A DNA stretch of 64,000 nucleotides, taken from the NCBI GenBank assembly GCA_016788635.1, contig JAEUSU010000007.1:159870-223869 (forward strand). Reading direction: 5' to 3'. This document shows, piece after piece, positions 29,427-55,725 of this stretch. The notes below the pieces were generated by a model. That model worked only from the letters and a program-made list of their open reading frames with translations, had not been told where the DNA came from and did not search any database. This stretch comes from Flavobacteriales bacterium (GTDB lineage: Bacteria; Bacteroidota; Bacteroidia; Flavobacteriales_F; PHOS-HE28). The position numbers and the translations under genes were made by a program. Within the stretch, counting starts at the first letter, position 1, and each line of letters begins with the position of its first letter.

Positions 29427-29446
29427 GGCGCCCTTACCGGGCCGGT

Positions 29447-29454
29447 CAAAAGTA
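29447..29454 (-). promoter_or_regulatory. Bacteroidota -7 promoter box (TACTTTTG on - strand) for the porin gene
   Basis: This is an exact match, 27 nt upstream of the porin ATG (29419). Confidence 0.4.
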
Positions 29455-29456
29455 GA

Positions 29457-30965: not shown

Positions 30966-32465
30966 TCATTCCTTGATGAATTTCCCCGCCCAGGGCGTGC
31001 CAGAGCGGTCCGTGTAGTGCAGGATGTAGAGCCCAGGCGGGTGCGGCCGCACGTCCAGCTCGATCTCAGTGCTTTGGCCGCCGGGTTGGAAGGTGCGCAC
31101 CTCGCGGCCGGTGGCATCCAGCAGGCGGAAGGTGCCGTTGGGCGGTTTGGCGGAGCGGAAGCTGATGAAGAGCCTGTCCGCGGCGGGGTTGGGATAGAGC
31201 AGGATGTTGAGCTTGGGCTCGCCCGGCAGGCGCGGCTGCTCGGCGATGTGGTCGTACAACTGGCAGCCGGGCACCAGGCAGCCGAAGCTGTCCACGCGGA
31301 TCACCCACAGATCTTGTTGGCCATCGTTGCATGAACCCGTGGCCACGATGCTGCCGTCGGGATCTTCAATGGAGTGCCGCAGCCAATGCACGCTGAAGCT
31401 GCCTTGGAGGGGTGGATGCTGGTAGGTGCGCATCCAGAGACTGTCGCCGTTGGACGCGAACTTCATCAGTACACCCATATAACGATAAGGAGGACCTTGC
31501 TCTTGGTAGATACCCGAAGCAACAAAAGCACCATCTGTCAACTCGACGACCGAGGAGAATGCGGCCTCCACTGCGGGTGCTCCGAACTGCTTCTCCCAAA
31601 GAAGGTTCCCCGATTGATCGATCCGAGCAGCATACAACTTCGTGGCGGTGGCGGAACCCGATTGATATGTAGCATAAGCGCCAACTACAAGAAGATCACC
31701 GCTCGTCGTTGATATCAAATTGGCCCAACCATCTCGATAAGGACCGCCAAGCAACAATTGCCATTGCTCCACGCCCAAGCTGTCAGTTTGGATCACAAGT
31801 CCATCGAAATCTTGGGTCGATACCCAGCGATGGCCTCCAAGAATGAAACCATGGTCGGGTGACCTGGCGATGGTATAGCCTTCCTCACGCAGAACATTCC
31901 CGAATTCATGAACCCACACGATGTTACCCATGGCGTCTTGTTTGGACAGAAAGAGCTGACCAGATTGGCTTCCATGCCACACGGAGCCACAGCCAAAGAA
32001 CGCACCATTGAATTCCCTTACAGAAGCGCCGATCGATTCATCGTTTGCGTTAGGGAAGATCTCGACACTCCATAGGCTATCAAGTCCAGGTCCGATCCTC
32101 CAGGAGCGAGATGATAACCTTGAACCATCGTCAGTAGGTCCCAAGAGGATAAGTCCGCTATCAGTGGTAAGGGCAGGGCCATTCGCCCAACCTGGGAGAC
32201 ATGTCAAACTGTCTCTTCCCCAAGAGCGCAATTCCTGCGCATCCCCGTTCGCAGAGATCTCCGTGAGGCATACACGAACGAATGGATTCAACGTGTCGAT
32301 GCCTGCCTGAACGATGAGGTACCCCGAATCCAGCTGACACACGAAGAAACCCATCTCATCATGCCCTTGCGCACCATGAAAGTCGTTGCGGGTGCTGAAC
32401 TGCTGCCCCTCGCAGACCAGCCAGGAGCAGGCAGCCAAGATCGCTATGCAGGAGCGGACCATCAT
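30966..32465 (-). CDS. secreted protein of unknown function with T9SS C-terminal sorting domain
   Basis: It has a signal peptide, a repetitive beta-rich body and a CTD (LNILLYPNPAADRLFISF...GLYILHYTD). The 5' two-thirds has markedly lower GC than its surroundings. Confidence 0.7.
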   Translation of the reverse strand: MMVRSCIAILAACSWLVCEGQQFSTRNDFHGAQGHDEMGFFVCQLDSGYLIVQAGIDTLNPFVRVCLTEISANGDAQELRSWGRDSLTCLPGWANGPALTTDSGLILLGPTDDGSRLSSRSWRIGPGLDSLWSVEIFPNANDESIGASVREFNGAFFGCGSVWHGSQSGQLFLSKQDAMGNIVWVHEFGNVLREEGYTIARSPDHGFILGGHRWVSTQDFDGLVIQTDSLGVEQWQLLLGGPYRDGWANLISTTSGDLLVVGAYATYQSGSATATKLYAARIDQSGNLLWEKQFGAPAVEAAFSSVVELTDGAFVASGIYQEQGPPYRYMGVLMKFASNGDSLWMRTYQHPPLQGSFSVHWLRHSIEDPDGSIVATGSCNDGQQDLWVIRVDSFGCLVPGCQLYDHIAEQPRLPGEPKLNILLYPNPAADRLFISFRSAKPPNGTFRLLDATGREVRTFQPGGQSTEIELDVRPHPPGLYILHYTDRSGTPWAGKFIKE

Positions 32466-32468
32466 CGC

Positions 32469-37610: not shown

Positions 37611-37756
37611 GCTGATGGGGGGTATCAATTGAACCGACAGCCTCCACCAACCCACGCCACAGATGCCAATATAGCACTGCTCTTGGTGAATGGTAACGCT
37701 CAACCCCGCGATGCCGCCCGCTCAGCGTGGTTCAGTGACGAGTAGTGCACAAAGGC

Positions 37757-39753: not shown

Positions 39754-39778
39754 GTGGGAGTTCGTGGTAAAAAGTGGC
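39754..39778 (+). promoter_or_regulatory. putative MraZ operator: three direct GTGG(G/T/C) boxes with exact 10-nt phasing
   Basis: In aaaGTGGGagttcGTGGTaaaaaGTGGCc the boxes start at 39754, 39764 and 39774, which is 44-68 nt upstream of the mraZ ATG. This resembles the (G)TGGG-N5 direct repeats bound by MraZ in E. coli. Confidence 0.55.
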
Positions 39779-39821
39779 CTTTTGCGGCTACTTTCGTCCC
39801 CGTCTCGCACGCACATGCGCA

Positions 39822-40286
39822 ATGCTGAACCTGCTCGGGGAATACGACTGCCGGCTGGACGCCAAGGGGAGGGTGATGCTCCCTGCGGCGCTCAAGAAGC
39901 AGTTGGGTGGCGAGGTGCCCAAGGGCTTCGTCATGAACCGCGACGTGTTCAGGCCCTGCCTGGTGCTCTACCCCATGATCGAATGGGAGCGCACCAACCA
40001 GATGCTGCGCCGGCTGAACCGCTTCATGGAGAAGAACATGGAGTTCATCCGGCGCTTCACCTCGGGGGCCACACCCCTGGAGCTCGATGGCAACGGACGC
40101 CTGCTGCTGCCCTACGCCCTGATGGCCGACGCCCGCATGGGCAAGGACATCAAGATGGTGGGGCTGGGCGACCGCATCGAGGTCTGGAGCAAGGAGGGGT
40201 ACGACCGCATGCGCCGCGAGAAAGTGGACCTCACCGCCCTGGCCGAAGAGGTCATGGGCAGCCTGGGAAATGAGGATGGGCAGTGA
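39822..40286 (+). CDS. mraZ: transcriptional regulator MraZ
   Basis: It has duplicated DxxxR-type motifs (LDAKGRVMLP and LDGNGRLLLP) and is the first gene of the dcw cluster. Confidence 0.9.
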   Translation: MLNLLGEYDCRLDAKGRVMLPAALKKQLGGEVPKGFVMNRDVFRPCLVLYPMIEWERTNQMLRRLNRFMEKNMEFIRRFTSGATPLELDGNGRLLLPYALMADARMGKDIKMVGLGDRIEVWSKEGYDRMRREKVDLTALAEEVMGSLGNEDGQ

Positions 40287-41181
40287 GTACCACGCTCCCG
40301 TTCTTTTACATGACTGTGTCGAAGGCCTGAACATCCGCCCCGACGGCGTCTACGTGGACGTCACCTTCGGCGGCGGCGGCCACAGCCGGGCGATCCTGGA
40401 GAAGCTGGGCCCGCAAGGCGCCCTCATCGCGTTCGATCGCGATGCGGACGCCGCGGCCAATGCGCCGCAGGACCCGCGCTTCACGCTGGTGCGCTCCGAC
40501 TTCCGCTGGCTGAAGAACCAGCTGCGCTACCTGGAGCGCCTGCCCATCGACGGCCTGCTGGCCGACCTGGGCGTGAGCAGCCACCAGTTCGATACCGGTG
40601 AGCGCGGCTTCAGCTTCCGCTTCGCGGGTCCGCTGGACATGCGCATGGACCGCAGGGCACCGCGCACCGCCGCCGACCTGGTGAACACGCTGGACGAAGC
40701 GGAGCTCACGCGGCTGCTGCGCACCTACGGCGAAGTGGAGGCCCCGCACCGCGTGGCCCGCCGCCTGGTCGAAGCGCGCACCGCACGCCGCATCGCCACC
40801 ACGCAGGATCTGGTGGCCGCGCTGGAGCCCGTGACGCCGCGCCGCGACGCCAACGCCTTCCTGGCCCGCGTGTTCCAGGCGCTGCGCATCGCGGTGAACG
40901 ATGAGCTCGGCTCGCTGGAGACCCTGCTGCGCATGAGCGCACAGGTGATCCGCCCGGGAGGCCGCCTGGTGGTGATCGCCTACCACAGCCTGGAGGACCG
41001 CCTGGTGAAGAACTGGATGCGCGCGGGAAGCCTGGACGGGGTGGAGCACAAGGACCCCTTCGGCCGCAGCGACCGCCCCTTCAAGCCGCTGCACGGCAAG
41101 GCCATCATGCCCTCGACACAGGAGATCGAACAGAACCCCAGGGCACGCAGTGCCCGCTTACGCATCGCCGAACGCCTGTGA
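40270..41181 (+). CDS. rsmH: 16S rRNA (cytosine1402-N4)-methyltransferase
   Basis: It has YHAPVLL, DVTFGGGGHS and AYHSLEDRLVK. The start could equally be the ATG at 40276. Confidence 0.9.
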   Translation: MRMGSEYHAPVLLHDCVEGLNIRPDGVYVDVTFGGGGHSRAILEKLGPQGALIAFDRDADAAANAPQDPRFTLVRSDFRWLKNQLRYLERLPIDGLLADLGVSSHQFDTGERGFSFRFAGPLDMRMDRRAPRTAADLVNTLDEAELTRLLRTYGEVEAPHRVARRLVEARTARRIATTQDLVAALEPVTPRRDANAFLARVFQALRIAVNDELGSLETLLRMSAQVIRPGGRLVVIAYHSLEDRLVKNWMRAGSLDGVEHKDPFGRSDRPFKPLHGKAIMPSTQEIEQNPRARSARLRIAERL

Positions 41182-41585
41182 ACAAGTTGAGAGAGAAACC
41201 CGCCGAAGAGCAGCCGAGGAAGAAGAAGTCCTCCGGTGCCGGCCAGGTGCCCCGCGCGCTCATCGGCATCCTCAACGGCTCCTTCCTCACGCGCGAGCAC
41301 GTGCTCCGCAACATGCCCTTCATCCTGTACGTGGCGGTCCTCATGCTCTGTTACATCGCCTACGGCTACTACACCGAGCGCACCGTGCGCGAGCTGGACC
41401 GCACCAGCACCGAGCTGAAGGAGATGCGCAGCGAGTACATCACCGTGCGCAGTCACCTGGAGAAGGCCGAGCAGCAGAGCCAGGTGGCCAGCGACATCGC
41501 CGCGCTGGGCCTGCGCGAGAGCCGCGTGCCGCCGCTGCGCATCCGCGTGGACGAGGACGAACTGTCAACCCTGACCGAACGGTGA
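41178..41585 (+). CDS. ftsL: FtsL-like cell division protein
   Basis: This small bitopic protein has one TM helix (FILYVAVLMLCYIAYGYY) and a coiled-coil tail. It sits in the canonical position between rsmH and ftsI. The GTG start overlaps the rsmH stop. Confidence 0.65.
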   Translation: MNKLREKPAEEQPRKKKSSGAGQVPRALIGILNGSFLTREHVLRNMPFILYVAVLMLCYIAYGYYTERTVRELDRTSTELKEMRSEYITVRSHLEKAEQQSQVASDIAALGLRESRVPPLRIRVDEDELSTLTER

Positions 41586-43699
41586 AGGATCCCCAGCGCA
41601 TCCTCCGCATCCGCCTGCTGCTCGTGGCCTCCGCCATGGTCCTCTTCGCCGCCGCCATCGTGGTGAAGCTCTTCGTGGTGCAGATGGCCGATGGCGGACG
41701 GTGGGCCGCGCGCGCCGAGCAGGTGGCCACCGCCTACCGCAGCGTGCAGCCGGACCGCGGCCACATCTACAGCGATGACGGCCGCCTGCTGGCCACCAGC
41801 GTGCCCGAGTACGAGGTGCGCATGGACATGCGGGCCGACGGCCTCACCGATGCGCTCTTCCATTCGCGCCTGGATTCGTTGAGCGCCGCGCTCAGCCAGC
41901 TTTTCCGCGACCGCGAGGCCTCCGCCTACCGCCGCGACCTGTTGGACGCCCGCGCACGCGGTGAACGCTACCACCTGGTGAAGCGCCGCTGCGACCATGA
42001 GCAGCTGCAGACGCTGAAGACCTTCCCGCTCTTCAAGCTCGGCCGTTTCAACAGCGGCCTCATCGTGGAGAAGCGCACCGTGCGCGTGCGCCCCTTCGGC
42101 CGGCTGGCCGCGCGCACCGTGGGCTTCGTACTGAAGGACAGCACCGTGGTGGGCCTGGAGGCCGGCTATGCCAAATGGTTGCAGGGCGTCACCGGCCGCC
42201 GCCTCGAGCGCCGCCTTGCCGGTGGTGTGTGGATGCCGATCGATGAAGGAACCGGACAGGACCCCGTGCCCGGCAGCGACATCCACACCAGCATCGACAT
42301 CAACCTGCAGGACGTGGCCGATGCCGCGTTGGAAGCGCAACTGCGCAAGCATGGCGCACACCACGGCTGTGTGGTGGTGATGGAGACCGCCACCGGCTAC
42401 ATCAAGGCCATCAGCAACCTCACACGCAAGGGCGACAGCACCTACGTGGAGGACCTCAACTACGCCATCGGTACCGCCACCGAGCCGGGCAGCACCTTCA
42501 AGACCGCCGCGCTGATGGTGGCGCTGGAGGACGGCCTGGTGCGCCCCACGGACACCGTGGACACCCGCGGCGGCACCGCGCGCTTCCACGACCGCATCAT
42601 GCGCGACTCGCACGAGGGAGGCTACGGCCGCATCACCGTGCAACGCGCATTGGAGCTGAGCAGCAACACCGGCATCTCCAAGGCCATCCACCGCGCCTAC
42701 GCCACCGACCCCGGCCGCTTCGTGGCGGGCCTGCGCCGCATGGGGCTGGACCAGCCCACCGGCGTGCGCGTGCCCGGCGAGCCGCTGCCCACCCTGCGCA
42801 GCCCCGGCGACAAGGGCTGGAGCGGCGTGAGCCTCCCGTGGATGAGCATCGGCTACGAAGTGGGCATGACCCCGCTGCAGGTGCTCGCCTTCTACAACGC
42901 CATCGCGAACGAGGGCCGCCTGATGCAGCCGCAGCTCGTGCGCTCCATCACCCGCACGGGCAACACGGTGCAGCAATTCCCACCGGTGACGATGAACCCC
43001 GCGATCTGCTCGCCCGCCACGCTGGCCACCATGCGCCGCATGCTGGAGGGCGTGGTGGACAGCGGCACCGCCACCAACCTGCGCGACGCGCACTTCCGCA
43101 TCGCGGGCAAGACCGGCACCGCGCAGATCGCGCGCGAGAACCTCGGCTACCGCGTGGATGGTGCGGTGGGCTACCAGGCCAGCTTCGTGGGCTACTTCCC
43201 TGCGGAAGCGCCACGCTACACGGCCATCGTGGTGGTGAGCTCGCCCAGCATGAGCGGCTACTACGGCAACGTGGTGGCGGGTCCCATCTTCCGCGAGATC
43301 GCCGACAAGATCCACGCGAACCGGCTGGAGCTGCAGACCGGTCTCGCCGTGGTGGAGCCCGATCCGCGCATGCCCGTGACCTATGGTGGCCACACGCGCG
43401 ATCTGCAGGCCGTGTTCCAGGCACTGAACGTGCCCGCCAGCTGGGTGGGCGAGGGCGAATGGTGTAGTACCACCGCCACCGACAGCCTGGTGCTGGTGCG
43501 ACCGCGCGAGCTGCCCGATGCCGGAACGCACCGTGTGCCCAACGTGCTCGGCATGGGCCTGCGCGATGCGCTGTACCTGCTGGAGAACCAGGGCCTGCGC
43601 GTGCAGGTGCGCGGCCACGGCATGGTGCGCCGCCAGTCCATCCAACCCGGCACCGTGGCTGGCCAGGGTTCCACCATCATCCTCGAGCTCGCCGCATGA
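41582..43699 (+). CDS. ftsI: penicillin-binding protein 3 / FtsI transpeptidase with C-terminal PASTA domain
   Basis: It has SxxK (GSTFKTA), SxN (LSSNTG) and KTG (GKTGTAQ) motifs, plus a PASTA-like end (VPNVLGMGLRDALYLLENQGLRV). The GTG start at 41582 overlaps the ftsL stop. The 849-aa ORF in the track is an out-of-context upstream extension. Confidence 0.85.
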   Translation: MKDPQRILRIRLLLVASAMVLFAAAIVVKLFVVQMADGGRWAARAEQVATAYRSVQPDRGHIYSDDGRLLATSVPEYEVRMDMRADGLTDALFHSRLDSLSAALSQLFRDREASAYRRDLLDARARGERYHLVKRRCDHEQLQTLKTFPLFKLGRFNSGLIVEKRTVRVRPFGRLAARTVGFVLKDSTVVGLEAGYAKWLQGVTGRRLERRLAGGVWMPIDEGTGQDPVPGSDIHTSIDINLQDVADAALEAQLRKHGAHHGCVVVMETATGYIKAISNLTRKGDSTYVEDLNYAIGTATEPGSTFKTAALMVALEDGLVRPTDTVDTRGGTARFHDRIMRDSHEGGYGRITVQRALELSSNTGISKAIHRAYATDPGRFVAGLRRMGLDQPTGVRVPGEPLPTLRSPGDKGWSGVSLPWMSIGYEVGMTPLQVLAFYNAIANEGRLMQPQLVRSITRTGNTVQQFPPVTMNPAICSPATLATMRRMLEGVVDSGTATNLRDAHFRIAGKTGTAQIARENLGYRVDGAVGYQASFVGYFPAEAPRYTAIVVVSSPSMSGYYGNVVAGPIFREIADKIHANRLELQTGLAVVEPDPRMPVTYGGHTRDLQAVFQALNVPASWVGEGEWCSTTATDSLVLVRPRELPDAGTHRVPNVLGMGLRDALYLLENQGLRVQVRGHGMVRRQSIQPGTVAGQGSTIILELAA

Positions 43700-45159
43700 A
43701 GCTGCTGAAGGACATCCTCTACAAGGTGCGCCTGGAACAGGTGGAGGGCAGCACGCAGACCGCCATCGAGGGCCTCGCCTTCGACAGCCGGCAGGTGCGC
43801 CCCTTCACCGCCTTCTTCGCCATGCCCGGCACCCAGGCCGATGGGCATGACCACATCCCGCAGGCACAGGAGAAGGGCGCAGCCGCCATCATCTGCCAGC
43901 GGCTGCCGGAGGAACTGAAAGAGGGTGTGACCTACGTGCGCGTGCACGACGTGCCGCTCGCGCTGGCCACCATGGCCGCCAATTACCACGATCATCCCTC
44001 GCGGCAACTCAAGCTCGTGGGTGTCACCGGCACCAACGGCAAGACCAGTGTCACCACACTGCTTTATGGATTGTTCCGCTCGCTCAACCGCAAGTGCGGC
44101 CTCATCGGCACGGTGGAGACGCGCATCGGGCGCGAGCGCATCGCGAGCACGCACACCACGCCCGACGTGCTGAGGCTGAACGAACTGCTCGTACGCATGG
44201 TGAAGGAGGGCTGCACGCACTGCTTCCTGGAAGTGAGCTCGCACAGCGTGGTGCAGGAGCGCATCGCCGGGCTCGAATTCACCGGCGGCGTCTTCACCAA
44301 CCTCACGCACGACCACCTGGACTACCACGGCACCTTCGCCAACTACCTGGCCGCGAAGAAGCGCTTCTTCGACCAGCTGCCGGAGGAAGCCTTCGCACTG
44401 GCGAACGCGGATGATGCGAACGGCACGGTGATGCTGCAGAACACCCGCGCCGCGCGCCGCACCTATGCGCTGCGCGGTCCGGCCGACCACCGCGCACGCA
44501 TCATCGAGAACCAGCTGAGCGGCCTGCACCTGGAGATCGACGGGCACGACCTGTACACCCGCATGGTGGGCGCCTTCAACGCGAGCAACCTGCTGGCCGT
44601 GTACGCCACCGCCATGCAACTGGGCGAGCGCCCGCTGGACGTGCTCACCGCGCTGAGCGACCTGCACCCGCCCGCCGGCCGTTTCCAGCATGTGCGCGGC
44701 GCCAGCGGCATCACCGGCATCGTGGACTATGCGCACACGCCCGATGCGCTGAAGAACGTGCTTTCCACCATCCGCGAGGTGTGCACCGGTGGCGAACGCG
44801 TGATCACGGTGGTGGGCTGCGGCGGCGACCGCGATCGCAGCAAGCGTCCGTTGATGGCCCGCATCGCGGCGGAGTTGAGCGACGTGGTGGTGCTCACCAG
44901 CGACAACCCGCGCAGCGAGGATCCCCATGCCATCATCCAGGAGATGAAGGTGGGGCTCACCGGCAGCGCCTCGCATGTGTTCGTGAACGCGGACAGGCGC
45001 GAGGCCATCCGCCAGGCCGCCGGCATGGCGCGCACGGGCGATGTGCTGCTGGTGGCCGGCAAGGGCCACGAGACCTATCAGGAGATCGCCGGGGTGAAGC
45101 ACCCCTTCGATGATGTCGCCGTGCTGCAGGAAACGCTGGCCACAACACCCACCAACTGA
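43696..45159 (+). CDS. murE: UDP-N-acetylmuramoyl-L-alanyl-D-glutamate--2,6-diaminopimelate ligase
   Basis: It has [10 protein letters not shown] and the DNPRSEDP motif, and occupies the dcw position. Confidence 0.9.
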
Positions 45160-46406
45160 TGCTCTACCACTTCTTCCAGACCATTGGTGAGGGCGTCCCG
45201 GGAAGCGGGGCCTTCGGCTACATCAGCTTCCGCGCCGCCATGGCCGTGATGACGTCGTTGATCATCACGCTCTGGTTCGGCAAGGGCATCATCCGCCTGC
45301 TGCGCCGGTTGCAGGTGGGCGAGACCGTGCGCGACCTCGGCCTTGAAGGGCAGCTGCAGAAACAGGGCACTCCCACCATGGGCGGCCTCATGATCCTCGC
45401 GGGCACCATCATTCCCACGCTGCTCTTCGCGCGGCTGGACAACATCTACATCCTGCTCATGCTCGCCAGCACCGTGTGGCTGGGCGCCATCGGCTTCATT
45501 GATGACTACATCAAGGTCTTCAAGAAGGACAAGCGCGGGCTGGCCGGCAAGTTCAAGGTGATCGGGCAGATCGGCATCGGCCTCATCGTGGGCCTCACGG
45601 TCTATTTCCATCCCAGCATCCGCACCAAGGTGGAGATCCCCCAGGTGCTGGCCATGCAGTTCCCCGATGAGGAGATCACCTCGTTCGTGGAGGACGACGG
45701 GCAGGTGCACTACCTGCTGGACCGCCGCCAGCCCAACACCACGATCCCCTTCGTGAAGGGCAACGAGTTCAACTACTCGTCCATCCCCGGCCTCTTCGGG
45801 CGTGAAGCGCGGAAGTACACCTGGCTCGTGTATGTACTGGTGGTCATCTTCATCATCACCGCGGTGAGCAACGGCGCCAACATCACCGACGGCATCGACG
45901 GGCTCGCCGCCGGCACCAGCGCCATCATCATGCTCACGCTCGGTGTGCTCACGTACATCGGCGGCAACATCATCTTCAGCCAGTACCTGGATGTGATGTA
46001 CATCCCCGGCGCGGGTGAGCTGGTGGTCTTCATCGGCGCCATGCTCGGGGGCTGCATCGGCTTCCTCTGGTACAACGCGTACCCGGCGCAGGTCTTCATG
46101 GGCGATACGGGTTCGCTCGCCTTGGGCGGCATCATCGCCACGCTGGCCATCCTGGTGCGCAAGGAGCTGCTGATCCCCGTGCTCTGCGGCATCTTCCTCG
46201 TGGAGAACCTGAGCGTGATGCTGCAGGTCTCCTGGTTCAAGTACACGAAGAAGAAGTACGGTGAGGGGCGTCGCATCTTCAAGATGTCGCCCCTGCACCA
46301 CCACTACCAGAAGCTCGGCTACCACGAAAGCAAGATCGTGTCGCGCTTCTGGATCGTGGGCGTGATGCTGGCCGTGATCACCCTCGTCACCCTCAAGCTC
46401 AGATGA
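45159..46406 (+). CDS. mraY: phospho-N-acetylmuramoyl-pentapeptide transferase
   Basis: This polytopic protein has [13 protein letters not shown] and [12 protein letters not shown], and occupies the dcw position. Confidence 0.9.
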
Positions 46407-47737
46407 GAAGGATCGCCGTGCTGGGCGCACAGGAGAGCGGTGTGGGCGCGGCGGTGCTGGCGCAGCGCCTGGGCCTGCCCGTGTTCGTGAGCGATGCGGG
46501 TAACATCAAACCGAAGTACCGCGCGGTGCTCGTGGCGCAGGGCATCGCCTTCGAGGAGGGCGGCCACAGTGCCGCACGCGTGCTGGACGCCGACGAGGTG
46601 GTGAAGAGCCCGGGCATACCGGACACCGCGCCGCTGGTGCGCGAGGCGGTGGCGAAGGGCATCCCCGTGATCAGCGAGATCGAGTTCGCCGCGCGGCACA
46701 CCACCGCGCCCATCGTGGCCATCACCGGCAGCAACGGCAAGACCACCACCACGCTGCTCACCCACCACATCCTGACCAGGGCGGGCTTGGACGCGGGGCT
46801 GGCCGGCAACGTGGGTGACAGCTTCGCCGGGCAGCTGGCCCAGGGCGACCGCGCCATCTGGGTCCTCGAGGTGAGCAGCTTCCAGCTCGATGGCACGCGT
46901 GACTTCCGTCCGCACATCGCCATCCTCACCAACATCACCCCCGACCACCTGGACCGCTATGCCTACCGCATGGAGGCTTATGTGGACAGCAAGTTCCGCG
47001 TGGCCATGAACCAGTCCGCCACGGACCACTTCATCCACTGCGCCGACGATCCCGAGACCAATGCCGGCCTCGCCCGACATACCGTGCGCGCGCGTCGCTG
47101 GCCCTTCTCCATCACCCAAGAGGTGCCCCAGGGCGCCTTCCTGAAAGACGATCACATCCACATCCTCACCGACCAAACCCCGTTCCGCATGAGCCTCTTT
47201 GAACTCGCACTCCAAGGCAAACACAATGTGTACAACTCCATGGCCGCCGGCATCGCCGGACGCATCCTCGAGATCCGCAACGAGAGCGTGCGCGAGAGCC
47301 TGAGCGACTTCCAGAACATCGAGCACCGCCTGGAGCGTGTGGCCACGGTGAACGGCGTCGAGTTCATCAACGACAGCAAGGCCACCAATGTGAACAGTGC
47401 CTGGTTCGCGATGGAATGCATGGAGAAGCCCGTGATCTGGGTGGCCGGAGGTGTGGACAAGGGCAACGACTACAGCAGTTTGATGCCGCTTGTGCAGAAG
47501 AAGGTGAAGGCCATTGTGTGCCTGGGCACCGACAACGCGAAGCTGCACGCCGCTTTCGGTGCGCTGGGCCTGCCCATGGTGGATGTGCAAAGTGCGGAGG
47601 CCGCCGTACAGGCATCCTATGAGCTGGCCGACCCTGGTGATGTGGTGTTGCTGAGCCCGGCCTGCGCCAGCTTCGACCTCTTCGAGAATTACGAGGAGCG
47701 CGGACGTCGCTTCAAGTCCGCCGTACGCGCGCTCTGA
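46403..47737 (+). CDS. murD: UDP-N-acetylmuramoylalanine--D-glutamate ligase
   Basis: It has [17 protein letters not shown] and the C-terminal [17 protein letters not shown]. Confidence 0.9.
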
Positions 47738-47765
47738 TCAATTGAACCTCCAACGCTCCACGACC

Positions 47766-48281
47766 ATGGACCAGCACAAGCCGAACCCGGTCACGCGCGG
47801 CGCACTCTCCGCCGAGCAGCTCATTCAGGCCCGCCAGCACTCCACACCGCTGCCCGTGCAGACGGCGCACAGCATGGAGCTGGTGGCCACCGTCAACGGG
47901 GTGGACTACGTGAACGATTCGCGCGCCACCTTCCTGGACGCCACCCTGCGCACCATGTCCGACCTGGACCGACCCGTGGTGTGGATAGCCGGGGCGGTGG
48001 GTGCCGAGGCCGGCAGCGCGCACATCAGCGAGTTCCTGCGCGAACGTGTGGTGGCCTTGGTGCTCTTCGGAAAGGCGGGCAGCGGTAGCATTGACGCATT
48101 GCGCCCCTTCACCGAGCATGTGTACAGCGCCGAGGAATTGCGCACCGCCGTATTCCTGGCGCGCGAGCTGGCACGCGAGGGCGAGGTGGTGCTCTTCAGT
48201 CCGGCCTGCCCCAGCAGCGACGGCTTCGCGAACTACGAGGAACGCGGCACCGAGTTCCGCCGTGCGGTGAAGGACCTCTGA
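47766..48281 (+). CDS. stand-alone Mur ligase C-terminal (domain 3) protein, MurD-derived paralog
   Basis: Its last 137 aa align without gaps to the last 137 aa of the adjacent MurD, with 52/137 identical by hand count (VATVNGV, NDS(K/R)AT, WIAG/WVAG, SPAC, NYEERG). It has no ATP-binding or UDP-binding domains. Confidence 0.7.
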   Translation: MDQHKPNPVTRGALSAEQLIQARQHSTPLPVQTAHSMELVATVNGVDYVNDSRATFLDATLRTMSDLDRPVVWIAGAVGAEAGSAHISEFLRERVVALVLFGKAGSGSIDALRPFTEHVYSAEELRTAVFLARELAREGEVVLFSPACPSSDGFANYEERGTEFRRAVKDL

Positions 48282-48297
48282 GCAACGGTACACGGCC

Positions 48298-49473
48298 ATG
48301 GAAGCCCTCTTCGAGCGACACCTGCGCGGCGACCGCACCATCTGGATGGTGGTGCTCTTCCTCGGGCTCATCAGCCTGCTGGCCGTGTACAGCTCGATCG
48401 CGTCCCTCGCCTACAAGAGCGGTGGTGGCACCCTGCGTTTCCTCTTCAAGCACGGGCTCATGCTCGCATCCGGCGGCGCCATCATGTACATGGCCAGCCG
48501 GCTCCGCTACACCGTGTATTCGCGCCTGTCGAGCCTCGCCATCTACGCGGTGGTGGGGTTGTTGGCCCTTACGCTGGTGATGGGCGCCAACCTCAATTCC
48601 GCTTCGCGCTGGATGGAGGTGCCCGTGCTGGGCGTCACCTTCCAGAGCAGCGATCTGGCCAAGGTGGTGCTCATCGTGTACCTGGCGCGCGTGCTGGGCC
48701 GCCACCGTGAAGAGCCTTGGACACTGCGTGAAGTGGTGGTGCGCCTGATGGTTCCCGTGGGACTGGTGTGTGGATTGATATTGCCCGCCAACTTCAGTAC
48801 GGCGGCCCTGCTTTTCGCCGTTTGTCTGATGATGATGTTCATCGCACAGGTGCCGCTCAAGCATCTCTTCATGGTCCTCTTCGCCGCGACGGCCGTGTTC
48901 GCCGTGTTGTTGCTCGTGGCCAAGCTCGTACCCGGCGTGTTGCCCCGGTTGGACACCTGGCTGGCGCGCATCGAGAACTTCGGCGGTGGCAGTGCGGAGG
49001 CCAACTACCAGGTGGAGCACGCCAAGATCGCCATTGCGCACGGCGGCATCCTGCCCAACGGACCCGGCAGCGGCACCTCGCGCAACTATCTGCCGCACCC
49101 GTATTCGGACATGATCTACGCCTTCATCATCGAGGAGTACGGATCGCTGATCGGCGGCATGGGCCTCCTGCTCCTCTACCTCATCCTGCTCTTCCGCGGG
49201 GTGCGTATCGCCACGCGCAGTGAGAAGCGTTTCGGCAGCCTGGTGGCCATCGGGCTCTGCGCGAGCCTGGTGCTGCAGGCGCTGGTGAACATGGCCGTGG
49301 CCGTGAACCTGGTACCCGTCACCGGTCAACCGCTTCCACTGGTCAGCATGGGCGGCACCTCCATCCTCATTACCTGCCTGGCCATAGGCATCGTGCTCAG
49401 TGTGAGCCGGGGCCTGGGCGAGGGCACCCTGCATGATGCAGCCGCGACCAAACCGCGCACCGCAACCGCTTAG
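48298..49473 (+). CDS. ftsW: SEDS-family peptidoglycan glycosyltransferase FtsW
   Basis: It is a 10-TM SEDS protein with SDMIYAFIIEEYG and TGQPLPLVSMGGTS. Confidence 0.9.
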   Translation: MEALFERHLRGDRTIWMVVLFLGLISLLAVYSSIASLAYKSGGGTLRFLFKHGLMLASGGAIMYMASRLRYTVYSRLSSLAIYAVVGLLALTLVMGANLNSASRWMEVPVLGVTFQSSDLAKVVLIVYLARVLGRHREEPWTLREVVVRLMVPVGLVCGLILPANFSTAALLFAVCLMMMFIAQVPLKHLFMVLFAATAVFAVLLLVAKLVPGVLPRLDTWLARIENFGGGSAEANYQVEHAKIAIAHGGILPNGPGSGTSRNYLPHPYSDMIYAFIIEEYGSLIGGMGLLLLYLILLFRGVRIATRSEKRFGSLVAIGLCASLVLQALVNMAVAVNLVPVTGQPLPLVSMGGTSILITCLAIGIVLSVSRGLGEGTLHDAAATKPRTATA

Positions 49474-50563
49474 GGTGATGATCGCCGGCGGAGGCACGGG
49501 GGGGCACATCTTCCCGGCCATCGCCATTGCCCATGCCGTGCGTGAGCAACGATCCGATGCGGAGTTCCTCTTCGTGGGCGCAGAGGGAAAAATGGAAATG
49601 GAGAAGGTGCCTGCTGCGGGGTTCCGCATCGAAGCCCTGCCGATCCGCGGCTTTCAACGCGGTGCGATGCTGAAGAACCTGGGCCTGCCCTGGCGTCTGG
49701 TGCGCAGCCTGCTGCGGGCGCGGCAGTTGCTGCGCGTATTCAAGCCCGATGTGGTGGTGGGCGTGGGTGGCTACGCCAGCGGACCGTTGCTGGCGGCCGC
49801 GCAGCGCGCGGGTGTGCCCACGTTGATCCAGGAGCAGAACAGCCACGCCGGCATGACGAACCGCCACCTGGGCAAACGGGCGAGCGTGATCTGCGTGGCG
49901 TATGCGGGCATGGAGCGCTACTTCCCGAAGGAACGACTGCTGCTCACCGGCAATCCCGTGCGGCAGGAGGTGGTGCGGCTTGCGGGCAAGCAACCGCGTG
50001 GCATGGAGCACTTCGGCTTGCGGGAAGGTGCGCCTATCGTCTTCGTGACCGGTGGAAGTCTCGGCGCGCGAGGCATCAACCTCGGCATCGAAGCGGCGCT
50101 GCCACAACTGAAGAAGCGCGGTGTGCAGGTGATCTGGCAGACCGGACTACCCTTTGAGCAGCGTGCGCGTGAAGCCGTGCAGCGCCTGGCTTACGCGGAC
50201 TGCCACGTGCATCCCTTCGTGGCGCGCATGGACCTGGCCTATGCCGTGGCGGACCTGGTGGTGGCGCGTGCAGGCGCCATCAGCGTGAGTGAATTGGCGC
50301 TGGTGAAACTGCCGTCCATCCTGGTGCCCCTGCCCACCGCAGCAGAGGACCATCAGACCCGCAATGCGCGCGCGCTCACCGATCGCGGCGCGGCGGTGCT
50401 GGTGCCCGATGCCACCACCACCACGGATCTCGGCCCGGCCATTCTCCACCTGCTGGATGATGCCGATCAACGCGAGCGGCTTCGTTCAGCCATCGGTGCC
50501 ATGGGCGCGGAGAATGCCGCCGCCGCCATCGCTTCGGAAGTGATCCGCCTCGCCCGGTCATGA
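49433..50563 (+). CDS. murG: UDP-N-acetylglucosamine--N-acetylmuramyl-(pentapeptide) pyrophosphoryl-undecaprenol GlcNAc transferase
   Basis: It has GGGTGGHIFPAIAIA and AGAISVSELA...LVP.P....DHQ..NA. The start is uncertain (49433/49436, overlapping the ftsW end). Confidence 0.9.
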   Translation: MMQPRPNRAPQPLRVMIAGGGTGGHIFPAIAIAHAVREQRSDAEFLFVGAEGKMEMEKVPAAGFRIEALPIRGFQRGAMLKNLGLPWRLVRSLLRARQLLRVFKPDVVVGVGGYASGPLLAAAQRAGVPTLIQEQNSHAGMTNRHLGKRASVICVAYAGMERYFPKERLLLTGNPVRQEVVRLAGKQPRGMEHFGLREGAPIVFVTGGSLGARGINLGIEAALPQLKKRGVQVIWQTGLPFEQRAREAVQRLAYADCHVHPFVARMDLAYAVADLVVARAGAISVSELALVKLPSILVPLPTAAEDHQTRNARALTDRGAAVLVPDATTTTDLGPAILHLLDDADQRERLRSAIGAMGAENAAAAIASEVIRLARS

Positions 50564-51939
50564 GCACACCCTCGCCTGCATACCTCTATTTCATCGGCAT
50601 CGGTGGCATCGGCATGAGCGGCCTGGCGCGGTATTTCCGCCGGCGCGGCGCCACCGTGGCCGGCTATGACCGCACGCCCAGCGAGCTCATCGGCCAGCTG
50701 CGCATGGAGGGCATCGAGACGCAGTTCGATGAGAACCCCGCGCTGATACCGGATGCGTTCCGCACCGCGCAGCCAGACCATGTGCTCGTGGTGCGCACAC
50801 CTGCGGTGCCGGTGACCAGTCCGTTGCTGAAGTACTGGCAGGAGCGTGGGGCACGCATCGTGAAACGCAGCGAACTGCTCGGCCTGGTGACACGCGACCG
50901 CCCCACGCTCGCCGTGGCCGGCACGCATGGCAAGACCACCGTGAGCACCCTGCTCGCGCACCTGCTCACCGCCGGTGGCATCCCCTGCAATGCCTTCCTC
51001 GGGGGCATCAGCGCCAACTACGGCACCAATGTGCTGCTCAACGATGCCGCACGCTTCAACGTGGTGGAGGCCGATGAGTACGACCGCAGCTTCCTGCAGC
51101 TCCATCCGCACCAGGCCATCATCACCGCGATGGACCCGGACCACCTCGACATCTACGGCACGCCCGAGGCCATGGTGGAGGCCTACCGCCAGTTCGCGAA
51201 GGCCTGCAGCGGAGGGCTGCTCGTGCATGAACGGGCGGCTGACCACGTGAAGGACCTGCCGGGCGTGGAAGAGTATGCCATCAGCCCGACCGCTGTGCAC
51301 CGCGCTGAACACGTGCAGGTGAAGGACGGTGCGTACCACTTCGACCTGGTCTCGGGGCCTGTGCAACTGCGTGGCCTCACCCTGGGCATGCCCGGCCGGC
51401 ACAACGTGGAGAACGCCGTGGCCGCGAGCGCGCTGGCGTTGCGTGCGGGTCTTTCGCCCGAAGCCCTGCGGCAGGGCCTCGCCTCGTTCCGGGGTGTGCA
51501 ACGCCGCTTCGAGGTGCGCGCACGCACCTCCCGTTCGGTGCTGATCGATGACTATGCGCACCATCCAGCCGAGCTGGAGGCCTGCATCCTGTCGGCCCGT
51601 GAGCTCTTCCCCGGCCGCCGCATCACCGGCATCTTCCAGCCCCACCTCTTCAGCCGCACGCGCGACCTGGCCGAAGGTTTCGCGCGCAGCCTGGCCCTGC
51701 TCGATGACCTGCTGCTGCTGGAGATCTACCCCGCCCGCGAGGAGCCCATCCCCGGCATCACCTCGGCCTGGCTGTTGGAGCAGGTGCCCTTAAGGAACAA
51801 GTACCTGTGTACAAAACAGGAGCTGCAGGCCGGCGGGCACTTGCGCGAAGTGGACATCTTGCTCGCGCTTGGCGCGGGCGACATTGACCGGCTCGTTCCG
51901 CACCTGGCAGCCCGCATCGAGAACGGCCCCAACCCATGA
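50560..51939 (+). CDS. murC: UDP-N-acetylmuramate--L-alanine ligase
   Basis: It has FIGIGGIGMSGLA, AGTHGKTT and DDYAHHP. Confidence 0.9.
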   Translation: MSTPSPAYLYFIGIGGIGMSGLARYFRRRGATVAGYDRTPSELIGQLRMEGIETQFDENPALIPDAFRTAQPDHVLVVRTPAVPVTSPLLKYWQERGARIVKRSELLGLVTRDRPTLAVAGTHGKTTVSTLLAHLLTAGGIPCNAFLGGISANYGTNVLLNDAARFNVVEADEYDRSFLQLHPHQAIITAMDPDHLDIYGTPEAMVEAYRQFAKACSGGLLVHERAADHVKDLPGVEEYAISPTAVHRAEHVQVKDGAYHFDLVSGPVQLRGLTLGMPGRHNVENAVAASALALRAGLSPEALRQGLASFRGVQRRFEVRARTSRSVLIDDYAHHPAELEACILSARELFPGRRITGIFQPHLFSRTRDLAEGFARSLALLDDLLLLEIYPAREEPIPGITSAWLLEQVPLRNKYLCTKQELQAGGHLREVDILLALGAGDIDRLVPHLAARIENGPNP

Positions 51940-52742
51940 TGAACCCGAAGCTCAAACGGCTCCTGCGCCTGTCCGCTTTCGCGGTCACCGGCATTGGTAT
52001 CGTGGCGGGCCTGGCCTTCGTGGAGCGCAGCAGCGACACGCGGCCGGTGACCGAATTGCGCGTGCATGTGCAGGGCCCTGCCGGTGTGCATTTCCTGGAT
52101 GCGGACGCGGTACGGCGTGAAGTGCTCTTCTCCAGCGAGGGCCTGCTGGGCACGCCCCTGGGCCGCGTGGACGCACCGGCGATCGAAGCCCACCTGCGCG
52201 GCCTGCCCACCGTGCGTAAGGCCGAGGTGTACGGCACGCTCGACGGCGTGATGCACGTGAAGGTGGACCAACGCCGCCCGATCATCCGCGTGGTGAACAG
52301 CGATGGCAGCGGCTTCTACATCGACGACCTGGGCTTCACCATGCCCTTGAGCTCGACTTTCACCGCCCGTGTGCCGGTGGCGGTGGGCGAGTTGCGCGAG
52401 CCATACGCCCATTCCGTGGCGCAGGTGTACGCCAGCGACAGTCTAGCCGCCGTGAGCTGGAGCGATGACCTCTACGCACTGGCCCGCTTCATGGCCCATG
52501 ATGAACTGTGGAGCGCATTGGTGGACCAGGTGGTGGTGAGTGACCGCGAAGGCTTGGTGTTGATCCCGCGAGCCGGCCAGCAGCGCATCCTCATCGGCGG
52601 TGCGGACCACCTTGAAGAGAAGTTCGCCTGCCTGAAGCAGTACTACCAGAAAGGCCTTCCCCAGGTGGGATGGCGCCGCCATGCCACCGTGGACCTGCGT
52701 TTCGCCGGACAGGTCGTGTGCACCCGCCGTCCCAATTCCTGA
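51936..52742 (+). CDS. ftsQ: cell division protein FtsQ
   Basis: This bitopic protein has one TM helix and a POTRA-like domain, and occupies the dcw position. The ATGA overlaps murC. Confidence 0.75.
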   Translation: MMNPKLKRLLRLSAFAVTGIGIVAGLAFVERSSDTRPVTELRVHVQGPAGVHFLDADAVRREVLFSSEGLLGTPLGRVDAPAIEAHLRGLPTVRKAEVYGTLDGVMHVKVDQRRPIIRVVNSDGSGFYIDDLGFTMPLSSTFTARVPVAVGELREPYAHSVAQVYASDSLAAVSWSDDLYALARFMAHDELWSALVDQVVVSDREGLVLIPRAGQQRILIGGADHLEEKFACLKQYYQKGLPQVGWRRHATVDLRFAGQVVCTRRPNS

Positions 52743-52777
52743 CCCTTCCCCCCAAGCACCCCATCCCCAATCCCCCC

Positions 52778-54067
52778 ATGGACACCAATGAGATCGTAGC
52801 CGGACTCGACATCGGCACCACCAAGATCGCCTGCATCGTGGGCCGCAGGAACGAACAGGGCAAGCTGGAGATCCTCGGCATGGGCAAGAGCCGCAGCGAG
52901 GGCGTGAGCCGTGGCGTGGTGGCCAACATCCAGAAGACCGTGGACAGCATCCAGGCCGCCATCCGTGAAGCCGAGGACAATGCCGGTGTGGACATCGAGA
53001 CCGTGACCGTGGGCATCGCCGGCCAGCATATCCGCAGCATGCACCATCGCGGGCAGATCACCCGCCGCAGCAACGAGGACGAGATCCATCAGAAGGACAT
53101 CGATCAGCTGATCGAGGACATGTTCAAGCTGGTGATGCCGGCGGGCGAAGAGATCATCCACGTGCTGCCACAGGAGTACATGGTGGACGGTGAGCAGGGC
53201 ATCCGCGACCCCATCGGCATGAGCGGTGTGCGGCTGGAGGCCAACTTCCACATCATCAGCGGGCAGATCACCGCCGCGCGCAACATCAACAAGTGCGTGC
53301 ACCGCGCCAACCTGAACGTGATGGACCTGGTGCTGGAGCCGCTGGCCAGTGCGGACTCCGTCCTCAGCGCCGAGGAGAAGGAGGCCGGCGTGGTGCTCGT
53401 GGACATCGGCGGCGGCACCACCGACATCGCCATCTTCCAGGACCACATCATCCGCCACACCGCCGTCATCCCCTTCGGTGGCAATGTGATCACCGAGGAC
53501 ATCCGGCACGGCTGCGGCATCATGCGCGACCAGGCCGAGCTGCTGAAGGTGCGCTTCGGCAGTGCGCTGGCGGCCGAGAACAAGGAGAACGAGGTGGTCT
53601 GCATCCCGGGTCTGCGCGGTCGTGATCCCAAGGAGATCAGCTTCAAGACGCTGGCCGAGGTGATCCAGCCCCGCATGGAGGAGATCCTCGAGCACGTCTA
53701 CTTCGAGATCAAGAACAGCGGCATGGAGAAGCAGCTGATCGGTGGCATCGTGCTCACCGGCGGTGGTGCCCAGTTGAAGCACCTGCGCCAGCTCTGTGAG
53801 TACATCACCGGCATGGGCGCACGCATCGGCTACCCCAACGAACACCTGGCCAAGAGCCACGTGGAGCACATCACCAGCCCGATGTACGCCACCAGCGTGG
53901 GCCTGGTGATGAAGGGCTTTGAAGCGCTCGACCGTCGACGCCCCCTGGTGCAGGCACAACAGGACCAGCAGCGCGTGAAGGGCCATTCCCAGCCCAGCCG
54001 CGTGGGCTCCTTCTTCGACAAGGTCACCAAGAGCTTCAGCGACCTGATGAGCGACGACGAGAACTGA
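52778..54067 (+). CDS. ftsA: cell division protein FtsA
   Basis: It has the actin-fold motifs GLDIGTTKIACIVG, VDIGGGTTDIAIF and LTGGGAQL. The start was trimmed to MDTNEIV. Confidence 0.9.
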   Translation: MDTNEIVAGLDIGTTKIACIVGRRNEQGKLEILGMGKSRSEGVSRGVVANIQKTVDSIQAAIREAEDNAGVDIETVTVGIAGQHIRSMHHRGQITRRSNEDEIHQKDIDQLIEDMFKLVMPAGEEIIHVLPQEYMVDGEQGIRDPIGMSGVRLEANFHIISGQITAARNINKCVHRANLNVMDLVLEPLASADSVLSAEEKEAGVVLVDIGGGTTDIAIFQDHIIRHTAVIPFGGNVITEDIRHGCGIMRDQAELLKVRFGSALAAENKENEVVCIPGLRGRDPKEISFKTLAEVIQPRMEEILEHVYFEIKNSGMEKQLIGGIVLTGGGAQLKHLRQLCEYITGMGARIGYPNEHLAKSHVEHITSPMYATSVGLVMKGFEALDRRRPLVQAQQDQQRVKGHSQPSRVGSFFDKVTKSFSDLMSDDEN

Positions 54068-54096
54068 ACCCATCCCCACCAGTCATCCCCAAGACC

Positions 54097-55725
54097 ATGA
54101 AATTCGATCTTCCCCAAGAGCTCACCTCGATCATCAAGGTGATCGGTGTGGGCGGTGGCGGCGGCAACGCCGTGAACCACATGTACGCCCAGGGCATCCG
54201 CGGCGTGGACTTCCTCATCTGCAACACCGACAGGCAGGCGCTGGAGATCAGCCCCATCCCCAACAAGGTGCAGCTGGGTGAGAAGCTCACCGAAGGCCTT
54301 GGTGCCGGCAGCGTTCCCGACCGTGGTCGCGAAGCGGTGCAGGAGAACCTTGAGGAACTGCGCGCCGTGCTGCAGGGCCGCACCAAGATGGTGTTCATCA
54401 CCGCCGGCATGGGTGGCGGCACCGGCACCGGCGCCGCTCCCGTGATCGCACGCGCCGCCAAGGAGATGGGCCTGCTCACCGTGGGCATCGTCACTCTGCC
54501 CTTCCAGTGGGAGGGCCGCAAGCGGCTGCTGCAGGCGAAGTCGGGCATTGAGGAGATGCGCAACAGCGTGGACACGCTGCTCATCATCAACAACGACCGC
54601 CTGCGCGACCTGTACGGCAACCTTTCCATGGATGCGGCCTTCGCCCATGCGGATGATGTGCTCACCACCGCCGCGCGCGGCATTGCCGAGATCATCACGA
54701 AGACGGGCAAGGTGAACGTGGACTTCGAGGACGTGAAGACCGTGATGACCAACAGCGGCGTGGCCATCATGGGCATGTCCGAGGCGGGTGGCGAAGACCG
54801 TGCGCTGCGCTCGGCACAGGAGGCGCTCGCGTCACCGTTGCTCAACGACAACGATATCAAGGGCGCCAAGTTCGTGCTGCTGAACATCGCCCACGGCGAG
54901 CGTGAGGTGCTCATGGACGAGATCGCGGAGATCACCGACCACATCCAGGAGGCCGCCGGCTCCACCGCCGATGTGATCTGGGGCTATTGCAAGGATGAGA
55001 CCCTTGGCGACAAGTTGCGCATCACGCTCATCGCCACGGGCTTCAACCAGAACCCCGAGATCGGTGGGCTGTCGGTGGCCGCGCCGGAACGCGTGGTCAT
55101 CCCTATTGATGCGCCATTGCCGACGGATGTGAAACAACCGCTGAGCAACCCGCTGGGCGCAAAGGCACCTGCCGCCCCCGCACCGCCACCTGCCGCACCG
55201 GAGCCGGTGGTGCCCACACTGCGGCCCGAACTGGAGCCCTTTGTCAAGGAGGTACGCGCGGAGGAGGCACCCAAGGTCGCCGTCGAGCCTGAAGCCAAGC
55301 CTTTGCAACGCGAGCTGGAATTCGTGATCAACAGCTCGCCCAGGGTGCCCGAGGCCGAGCCTCAGGGGGATGAGCGCGTCACCCATTCACTATATGGTCC
55401 CGAGGAGCACGCAGCCGTGCCCGAGAATGGCGCCACCATGAAGGACCCCACGTCACGGGAGCATGAAGCCGTGCAGGGGAACCGCGTGGAGGAACGGCTG
55501 GCCAAGGTGCGTGAGATCACCATCCGGCTGCGCACTCCCAGTGGCTTGAGCGAGATGGAGCGCGAGCCCGCTTACCTGCGCCGCAATGCCAAGCTGAGCG
55601 ATGCGCCCCACAGTTCGGACAACGGATTGAGCCGGTACACGCTCACCGAGGAGACGGACGAGACCGGTCAGAAGCGGGTGGAGTTGCGCCGCAACAATCC
55701 GTTCCTGCACGACAACGTCGATTGA
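54097..55725 (+). CDS. ftsZ: cell division protein FtsZ (long linker form)
   Basis: It has GVGGGGGNAVN and the GGGTGTGAAPV tubulin signature, a long Pro/Ala/Glu-rich linker and a conserved C-terminal peptide (NNPFLHDNVD). Confidence 0.95.
   Translation: MKFDLPQELTSIIKVIGVGGGGGNAVNHMYAQGIRGVDFLICNTDRQALEISPIPNKVQLGEKLTEGLGAGSVPDRGREAVQENLEELRAVLQGRTKMVFITAGMGGGTGTGAAPVIARAAKEMGLLTVGIVTLPFQWEGRKRLLQAKSGIEEMRNSVDTLLIINNDRLRDLYGNLSMDAAFAHADDVLTTAARGIAEIITKTGKVNVDFEDVKTVMTNSGVAIMGMSEAGGEDRALRSAQEALASPLLNDNDIKGAKFVLLNIAHGEREVLMDEIAEITDHIQEAAGSTADVIWGYCKDETLGDKLRITLIATGFNQNPEIGGLSVAAPERVVIPIDAPLPTDVKQPLSNPLGAKAPAAPAPPPAAPEPVVPTLRPELEPFVKEVRAEEAPKVAVEPEAKPLQRELEFVINSSPRVPEAEPQGDERVTHSLYGPEEHAAVPENGATMKDPTSREHEAVQGNRVEERLAKVREITIRLRTPSGLSEMEREPAYLRRNAKLSDAPHSSDNGLSRYTLTEETDETGQKRVELRRNNPFLHDNVD

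Follow-up and report, generated by a model that had tools for sequence, protein, structure and literature searches.

Few gene clusters of bacteria are as conserved or as thoroughly studied as the division and cell wall (dcw) cluster, and Mur ligases serve as targets for antibiotics. In a 64,000-nucleotide stretch of DNA from a Flavobacteriales bacterium (contig JAEUSU010000007.1 of assembly GCA_016788635.1, positions 159,870 to 223,869; hereafter the window), a small gene, here termed X, lies between murD and ftsW of this cluster, which raises the question of what a free copy of the C-terminal domain of MurD does beside a complete murD. An initial annotation, made from the sequence alone, had noticed that a 171-residue open reading frame (ORF) separates the two genes, and the ORF coordinates bear this out. 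The analysis described here indicates that X is a natural, conserved and catalytically dead stand-alone Mur ligase domain 3 within the dcw operon.

The similarity to MurD is evident at the level of sequence, profile and predicted fold. By BLASTP, residues 35-171 of X align without a gap to residues 308-444 of the adjacent MurD at E=7e-29, with identity at 52 of 137 positions (38%), which reproduces the gapless match to the end of MurD that had been counted by hand. The sole Pfam match in X is Mur_ligase_C (PF02875), which spans residues 37-148 and the profile from position 3 to its end at 127; its score of 30.7 bits exceeds the gathering threshold of 28.4, and for many relatives a PF02875 match is already precomputed in databases. 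The NCBIfam model for MurD, TIGR01087, aligns with X over profile positions 304-440 of 441 (121.5 bits, E=4.7e-35); X remains below the equivalog cut-off of 211.95 bits, that is exceeded by the adjacent MurD with 398.1 bits, and in the latter Pfam MurD_N, Mur_ligase_M and Mur_ligase_C were all matched. A profile of the X family retrieved MurD only among the PDB sequences (11 sequences, best E=1e-21), with no match to MurC, MurE or MurF. The AlphaFold2 (AF2) model of X has a predicted local distance difference test score (pLDDT) of 82 overall and mostly above 85 within the core, and in a Foldseek search of the PDB the first 33 places are taken by MurD structures (E down to 5e-11), ahead of MurE, MurF and Mpl. 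By gathering score and by predicted domain 3 fold, X is thus a Mur_ligase_C domain. Profile searches and structure prediction had been suggested by the initial annotation as checks on its reading; the former make the similarity to MurD significant, and the latter gives a confident core whose best structural matches are MurD.

The homology does not begin at residue 35. The N-terminal 34 residues had been taken to be unrelated to MurD, and this is contradicted by the alignment, in which residues ~13-34 of X correspond to the last helix and linker of the MurD central domain. Within this helix (residues 16-25) and just after it, L19, A22, R23 and L27 are conserved, and R23 is invariant in 77 of 77 loci and stands opposite R297, itself invariant in MurD. 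Furthermore, tblastn matches with MurD extend back to MurD residues ~270-300 in many orthologous loci, and in low-GC relatives the N-terminal homology to MurD is obvious (compared stretch LVQARRKSLEEFGNIEHRLE). The segment has a mean pairwise identity of 0.37; its helix is predicted by AF2 at a pLDDT of ~60 and its packing on the domain is not confident, with residues 1-12 and 27-34 appearing disordered in the model. X arose by duplication of the 3' third of murD, which took in the whole of domain 3 and, ahead of it, the final helix of the central domain.

A protein search with X returned 307 homologs, and the best 120 of these are 132-195 residues long, mostly 160-177, at 49-89% identity; over hundreds of database clusters the length of X relatives is likewise steady at 160-177 residues. 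When one genome of each GTDB species was scanned, the distribution of the short ORF between murD and ftsW, that the initial annotation had proposed to determine, came to ~100 species encoding a relative; all are uncultured high-GC metagenome-assembled genomes (MAGs) that carry a Flavobacteriales or Bacteroidota label and were obtained from activated sludge, lakes and soils. We fetched 80 of these loci. X is intact in all 80, with a full-length murD before it whenever the contig extends that far upstream, and followed by ftsW (then murG and murC) in every locus with a contig reaching that far, with the exception of locus L061, where a 2.9-kb three-gene MlaE/MlaF/MlaD-like ABC transporter operon (4466-7395) lies between X and ftsW. 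Median gaps are 20 nt from murD to X and 23 nt from X to ftsW, compared with 28 nt from the murD stop and 16 nt to the ftsW start in the window. The start of X at ATG 47766 is favoured over TTG 47742 by the MDQ/MEK N-termini conserved in the family. No terminator-like site flanks X, and a sigma-70 promoter scan gave no match, the sigma-70 model being uninformative for Bacteroidota.

The coding sequence of X is under selection at the level of amino acids. The ratio of non-synonymous to synonymous substitution rates (dN/dS) of the X core in close pairs (dS 0.16-0.5) is 0.019-0.18, like that of the MurD C-domain; distant pairs were discarded, since their dS is saturated or compressed at a GC content of ~0.88 at third codon positions. 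No frameshift or stop was found in the 80 loci or in the window, and the decay in relatives that would have spoken against the initial annotation is therefore not seen. The codon-position GC of X (0.68/0.47/0.88) is the same as in the neighbouring genes of this 64%-GC genome, as its coding-like composition had suggested. X has a mean pairwise identity of 0.60, below the values for the MurD C-domain (0.74) and for domains 1-2 of MurD (0.72), and a 21-sequence alignment of X contains 26 invariant columns. X is a real protein-coding gene kept by purifying selection in a large clade of Flavobacteriales; the earlier description of an old, maintained partial duplicate holds, given the ~100 species with the same synteny, the dN/dS values and the invariant residues of its own.

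In order to characterize what X has kept of the MurD active site, we aligned its sequence to those of the neighbouring MurD and of E. coli MurD (numbered as in the structural literature, that is, gene numbering minus 1), and counted residues over 77 X loci. In E. coli MurD, D317, K319 and T321 contact ADP and D-glutamate (D-Glu), the D-Glu-binding residues are T321, K348, S415, L416 and F422, and the D-Glu alpha-carboxylate has K348 as its charge partner (PMC9780078). X retains H301 (H35), D317 (D51), T321 (T55), S415 (S150) and F422 (Y157), with 75-77 of the 77 loci keeping the equivalents of D317, T321, S415 and F422. In the NDSRAT motif N, D, S and T never vary and position 53 is R or K (72/77 loci); the alignment confirms that X reads NDSRATF where MurD has NDSKATN. 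The equivalent of R302 is R in just 47 loci and S in the X of the window, and that of L416 is mostly G. At the K348 position (residue 80 of X) we found A in the window and A, D, S, E or N across the loci, never K or R, and the next residue, 81, is E or D in 72 of them. The full set of D-Glu-binding residues of MurD is thus absent from X, in which T321, S415 and F422 (as Y) are kept and K348 is lost. The X core carries a net charge of -8 versus -2.6 for the MurD C-domain, and has invariant residues that are missing from MurD, namely F56, L57, D58, L61, R126, F130, E134, F144, P149, G153 and D170.

The remaining two domains of the ligase are missing. The N-terminal UDP-MurNAc-L-Ala-binding domain (PF21799/PF21377) gave no match in X at E<=1, and both models match the adjacent MurD; the central ATP-binding domain PF08245 gave no match either, and GxxGK[ST] does not occur in its 171 residues. 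Judged by its sequence, X cannot ligate, because the substrate-binding and ATP-binding domains are missing, and with the K348 loop variable and acidic in addition, it is best described as a catalytically dead derivative of MurD. The initial annotation had excluded a ligase on the absence of the N-terminal and central domains, to which the loss of the D-Glu-binding lysine can be added.

Table 1. Coordinates of X, its segments and its neighbours in the window, and of short relatives in other fetched loci (P, protein; L, locus).
Feature	Position	Strand	Description
Gene X (stand-alone MurD C-terminal-domain paralog)	47766..48281, stop codon included	+	ATG start, 171 aa, TGA
N-terminal 34 aa of X	47766..47867	+	Residues 1-12 variable; helix 16-25 and linker derive from the last helix of the MurD central domain
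X core, aa 35-171	47868..48278	+	Predicted alpha/beta fold like MurD domain 3 (AF2, Foldseek, TIGR01087)
Motif NDSRAT, aa 50-55	47913..47930	+	Equivalents of E. coli D317, K319, T321 (conservation table, alignment)
Degenerate loop GAVGAEAGS, aa 76-84	47991..48017	+	Stands where MurD has the invariant GG.DKGNDY
Motif SPACPSSDGFANYEERG, aa 145-161	48198..48248	+	Near-invariant in the family; holds the equivalents of S415 (S150) and F422 (Y157)
murD, full-length parent gene	46403..47737	+	444 aa; three domains; GG.DKGNDY loop intact
ftsW, downstream of X	48298..49473	+	391 aa; PF01098 at 227 bits
dcw cluster	39774..55725	+	mraZ-rsmH-ftsL-ftsI-murE-mraY-murD-X-ftsW-murG-murC-ftsQ-ftsA-ftsZ (ORFs and Pfam); complete and of Bacteroidota type
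P0146	L086-L088, gene 5001-5549		mraY-X-ftsW, no full murD nearby
P0411	L090, 10001-10546 (206-kb JGI contig)		mraY-X-ftsW, no full murD nearby
P0403, "Bacteroidetes bacterium 4572_112" (OYT10636.1)	L091/L092, 10001-10549		mraY-X-ftsW, no full murD nearby
P0191	L095, 6001-6528		mraY-X-ftsW, no full murD nearby
P0172	L097, 1612-2187		Contig just 2.6 kb; mraY-X adjacency alone visible
P0141	L096		murD-X-ftsW arrangement

In light of these data we favour, with slightly better than even confidence, the interpretation that X is a selected, catalytically dead murD derivative acting as a non-enzymatic adaptor or regulator of the peptidoglycan-precursor and division machinery. The regulator, scaffold or channelling adaptor put forward by the initial annotation would likewise be plausible. 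X would be co-produced with MurD, MraY and FtsW and would act via protein-protein contacts, since its conserved surface elements are not the catalytic ones and since it carries a conserved, loosely attached helix. Contacts of this kind are known for its relatives and also argue for such a role: Mur ligases have been reported to bind MurG, MreB and MraY scaffolds (PMC4929429), contacts between MurE and MurF are mediated by the C-terminal Mur ligase domains, and natural MurD-FtsW fusions exist (PMC10214165). The likely contact surfaces would be the retained residues facing the former active site (the H301, D317, K319 and T321 equivalents and SPAC..S..F.NYEERG), the family-specific invariants on two helices (F56, L57, D58 and L61; R126, F130 and E134) and the N-terminal helix; candidate partners are MurD or another Mur ligase, MurG, MraY and FtsW. 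With K348 lost, X probably does not act through D-Glu binding.

Several observations weigh against this interpretation. A mirror-tree analysis of X against MraY, MurD N-terminal plus central domains (N+M), MurD C-domain, FtsW and MurG over 57 syntenic loci gave weak and equal partial correlations of X with all proteins (r of 0.11-0.21), and no partner is singled out because the rate correlations of X are all alike. X evolves faster than its parent domain (identity of 0.60 versus 0.74), and its adjacency to ftsW is not obligatory because of the insertion in L061. Docking of X in trans on the central domain of MurD would be physically unfavourable, since a free domain 3 competes poorly with the tethered domain 3 of MurD, and for this reason a plain trans-inhibitor of MurD is not favoured. 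Some binding of small molecules is also conceivable, because the equivalents of D317, T321, S415 and F422 are ligand contacts in MurD. Across the same 57 loci, with the shared phylogenetic signal removed, the partial r was 0.75 between MraY and FtsW and 0.52 between MurD N+M and MurG.

Relatives of X extend beyond the high-GC clade. An exhaustive profile search returned ~13 cluster representatives of the family proper and, below these, a second tier of short low-GC proteins with an N-terminal L..AR..L helix, VLFSPA in place of the VLLSPA of MurD, and the GG.DKG loop lost; a search with the second-tier alignment found hundreds more. The murD-X-ftsW slot is also occupied in a Salibacteraceae MAG, in a 5.9-Mb metagenome contig and in the cultured Parvicella tangerina (Parvicellaceae, Flavobacteriales; genome OU015584.1), the X of which (WP_258543043.1) is named "glutamate ligase domain-containing protein" in RefSeq. 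Relatives spanning 35%-64% GC keep the same protein motifs. In the P. tangerina locus (L089, 6994-8560), MraY has 478 residues, compared with ~415 usually, and a 38-residue ORF is called between mraY and murD.

Other Bacteroidota encode 175-191-residue proteins that consist of the MurD C-domain only, with a start that falls ~10-25 residues earlier on the MurD sequence, a degenerate HN..N ATP motif and, in most of them, no K348. In several lineages such a gene occurs in the order murE-mraY-[C-domain gene]-ftsW-murG-murC, and no full-length murD was found within the surrounding 10-20 kb where the order is mraY-X-ftsW (Table 1). The 182-residue forms are 50-51% identical to residues 263-444 of the window MurD, versus 35-38% to X, and look like the dcw murD itself minus its first 262 residues. 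A neighbour-joining tree of the 137-column core places all short proteins together with a bootstrap of 1/100; the sole supported grouping is that of the high-GC family with P0121 and P0126, at 88/100. We tentatively raise, as a possibility of low probability, that X and its short relatives form an unrecognised, widespread module of the Bacteroidota cell-wall and division machinery, a MurD-derived pseudoenzyme that physically couples cytoplasmic precursor synthesis (Mur ligases, MraY and MurG) to the septal polymerase FtsW, or that gates FtsW or MurD. If true, the mraY-X-ftsW lineages would have moved or replaced the D-Glu-adding step and kept the module, and it would be the module, not the enzyme, that must be encoded beside ftsW.

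One further short protein, P0230 (184 residues, MurD C-domain only), is encoded at 10001-10555 of L093, on contig SDBT01000113.1 of GCA_004196315.1, and also in L094. On its 102-kb contig dozens of short ORFs are densely packed on the same strand, hardly any of them with a Pfam match, and the contig may be a phage or other mobile element; the ORFs of L093 gave no PHROGs match, and no relatives of P0230 were found in IMG/VR.

The conserved ligand-contact residues lead to the first of the alternatives, that X is a ligand sensor or carrier which passes product to MurE or reports precursor levels to the division machinery. The near-complete conservation of the D317, T321, S415 and F422 equivalents (75-77 of 77 loci), with R or K at the K319 position in 72, would fit such a role, as these are the residues that contact ADP and D-Glu in MurD (PMC9780078). 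The binding sites of MurD are, however, located at domain interfaces, and X has neither domain 1 nor domain 2; the R302 equivalent is R in just 47 loci, and the conserved residues may serve folding alone. A D-Glu sensor in particular is weakened because K348 is lost, its position being never basic and followed by an acidic residue, within a GG.DKGNDY loop that is degenerate throughout. On balance we regard the sensor or carrier as unlikely.

A split enzyme, in which X would provide domain 3 in trans to a separate Mur protein with N-terminal and central domains and so create a second ligase specificity, appears highly improbable. X does retain the helix that joins MurD domains 2 and 3 as well as the ATP-facing residues, and in other Bacteroidota a C-domain-only gene sits at the murD position of a cluster without a full murD. 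However, neither the 64-kb window nor the fetched loci contain a truncated gene with N-terminal and central domains, the complete MurD encoded next to X is better conserved than X itself, and the amino-acid-binding lysine loop, needed by a ligase, is lost in X.

We give very little credence to the explanation that the frame of X is maintained for reasons in cis alone, as an ftsW promoter or for translational coupling, with an inert protein as by-product. Its position directly before ftsW in nearly all genomes, where the two genes overlap or are a short gap apart, speaks for it, and the independent-looking truncated murD remnants of other Bacteroidota also directly precede ftsW. Selection nevertheless acts on the amino acids (dN/dS of 0.02-0.18 at dS 0.16-0.5), the fold-defining and family-specific residues are invariant at 50-60% overall identity, the protein motifs persist from 35% to 64% GC, and L061 retains X with ftsW 2.9 kb away. 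Finally, a decaying pseudogene or fresh duplication scar, as a truncated copy beside its parent and evolving faster than it might suggest, is refuted by the comparative data, that is, intact frames of stable length (160-177 residues) in 80 loci and the window, dN/dS well below 1 and gene-typical codon-position GC.

A link to phages or defence systems was also considered and rejected, X having no PHROGs or PADLOC match. In a phage collection, tblastn gave ~30% matches, of which the annotated ones lie solely under murD genes in records of doubtful phage status, and a BFVD search returned one unnamed 276-residue match.

X was also compared with known systems. With MurD itself, X shares 38% identity with the adjacent protein, the predicted fold, the dcw location and the motifs H..E.V, NDS(K/R)(A/S)T, W..G and SPAC.S..F.NYE.RG..F, but differs in lacking the UDP-MurNAc- and ATP-binding domains and the K348 loop, in being more acidic and faster-evolving, and in its own invariants. 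The MurD-FtsW chimeras of Proteobacteria and Actinobacteria (PMC10214165) likewise place the C-terminal domain of MurD beside FtsW, which suggests that MurD-FtsW proximity is useful. In the chimeras, however, a full-length and presumably active MurD is fused, whereas X is separate, two domains short and coexists with a complete MurD. In MurT, of the MurT/GatD lipid II amidotransferase, the C-terminal domain is a docking surface for the partner protein. MurT (PMC6085368, PMC6113224) is Mur-ligase-derived, with part of the canonical three-domain layout lost, in which it resembles X. Unlike X, MurT is catalytic and keeps the central ATPase and a C-terminal DUF1727; X has no GatD-like neighbour, and a MurT/GatD-type derivative was rejected on the absence of MurT, Mur_ligase_M and DUF1727 matches and on its neighbours, murD and ftsW. 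The MurE-like PAP11 is a non-catalytic component of the plastid-encoded RNA polymerase and thus an example of the Mur ligase fold as a structural subunit, recovered by Foldseek with X (8qma_O, 8r6s_Q), but it is eukaryotic, MurE-derived, full-length and part of an unrelated complex. That a Mur C-terminal domain can fold alone is illustrated by the isolated domain 3 of Mpl (PDB 3mvn; template modelling score of 0.71 normalised to the target), although this is a laboratory construct from a full-length enzyme and not a natural stand-alone gene. PAP11 and the Mpl domain are precedents for the Mur ligase fold as a structural module and make a contact role of X more plausible.

Full-text searches of the literature found no description of such a MurD domain 3 protein. 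The statement of the initial annotation that no example had been described therefore stands for the literature; the family itself is already in databases under generic or wrong names. Its members are called "hypothetical protein", "cyanophycin synthetase" (NCBI MAGs) and "MurD" or "UDP-N-acetylmuramoylalanine--D-glutamate ligase" (JGI, UniProt), and the MurD and cyanophycin synthetase names are wrong because these are 160-190-residue proteins without catalytic domains. Such names could mislead metabolic reconstructions. The titles of several high-GC X-bearing MAGs, "uncultured Chryseobacterium sp." or "Chryseobacterium gleum", appear to be taxonomic mislabels.

With respect to the other genes of the window, the gene at the ftsQ position of the dcw cluster (51936-52742, +; 268 residues) has no Pfam match at E<=1e-5, nor do its counterparts in relatives. 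On the minus strand, 4666-8028 and 8035-11433 are tandem paralogs of ~1,120-1,130 residues with FG-GAP/VCBS repeats and an ASPIC/UnbV domain, and 30966-37703 encodes a 1,744-residue beta-helix/Sortilin-like protein followed by a 499-residue protein with a type IX secretion system (T9SS) C-terminal sorting domain. gldB is located nearby, at 29214-30485, and together with the T9SS genes fits a gliding, T9SS-bearing Flavobacteriales genome.

Members of the Flavobacteriales branch that bears X abound in activated sludge, lakes and sea water, and X is experimentally accessible because the gene occurs in the cultured P. tangerina. It offers a natural handle on the long-standing question of whether complexes between Mur enzymes and the membrane steps are formed, and via which domains. 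A selected dead MurD-domain gene in the dcw cluster points to an unstudied layer of organisation or control of peptidoglycan-precursor or septal synthesis in Bacteroidota.

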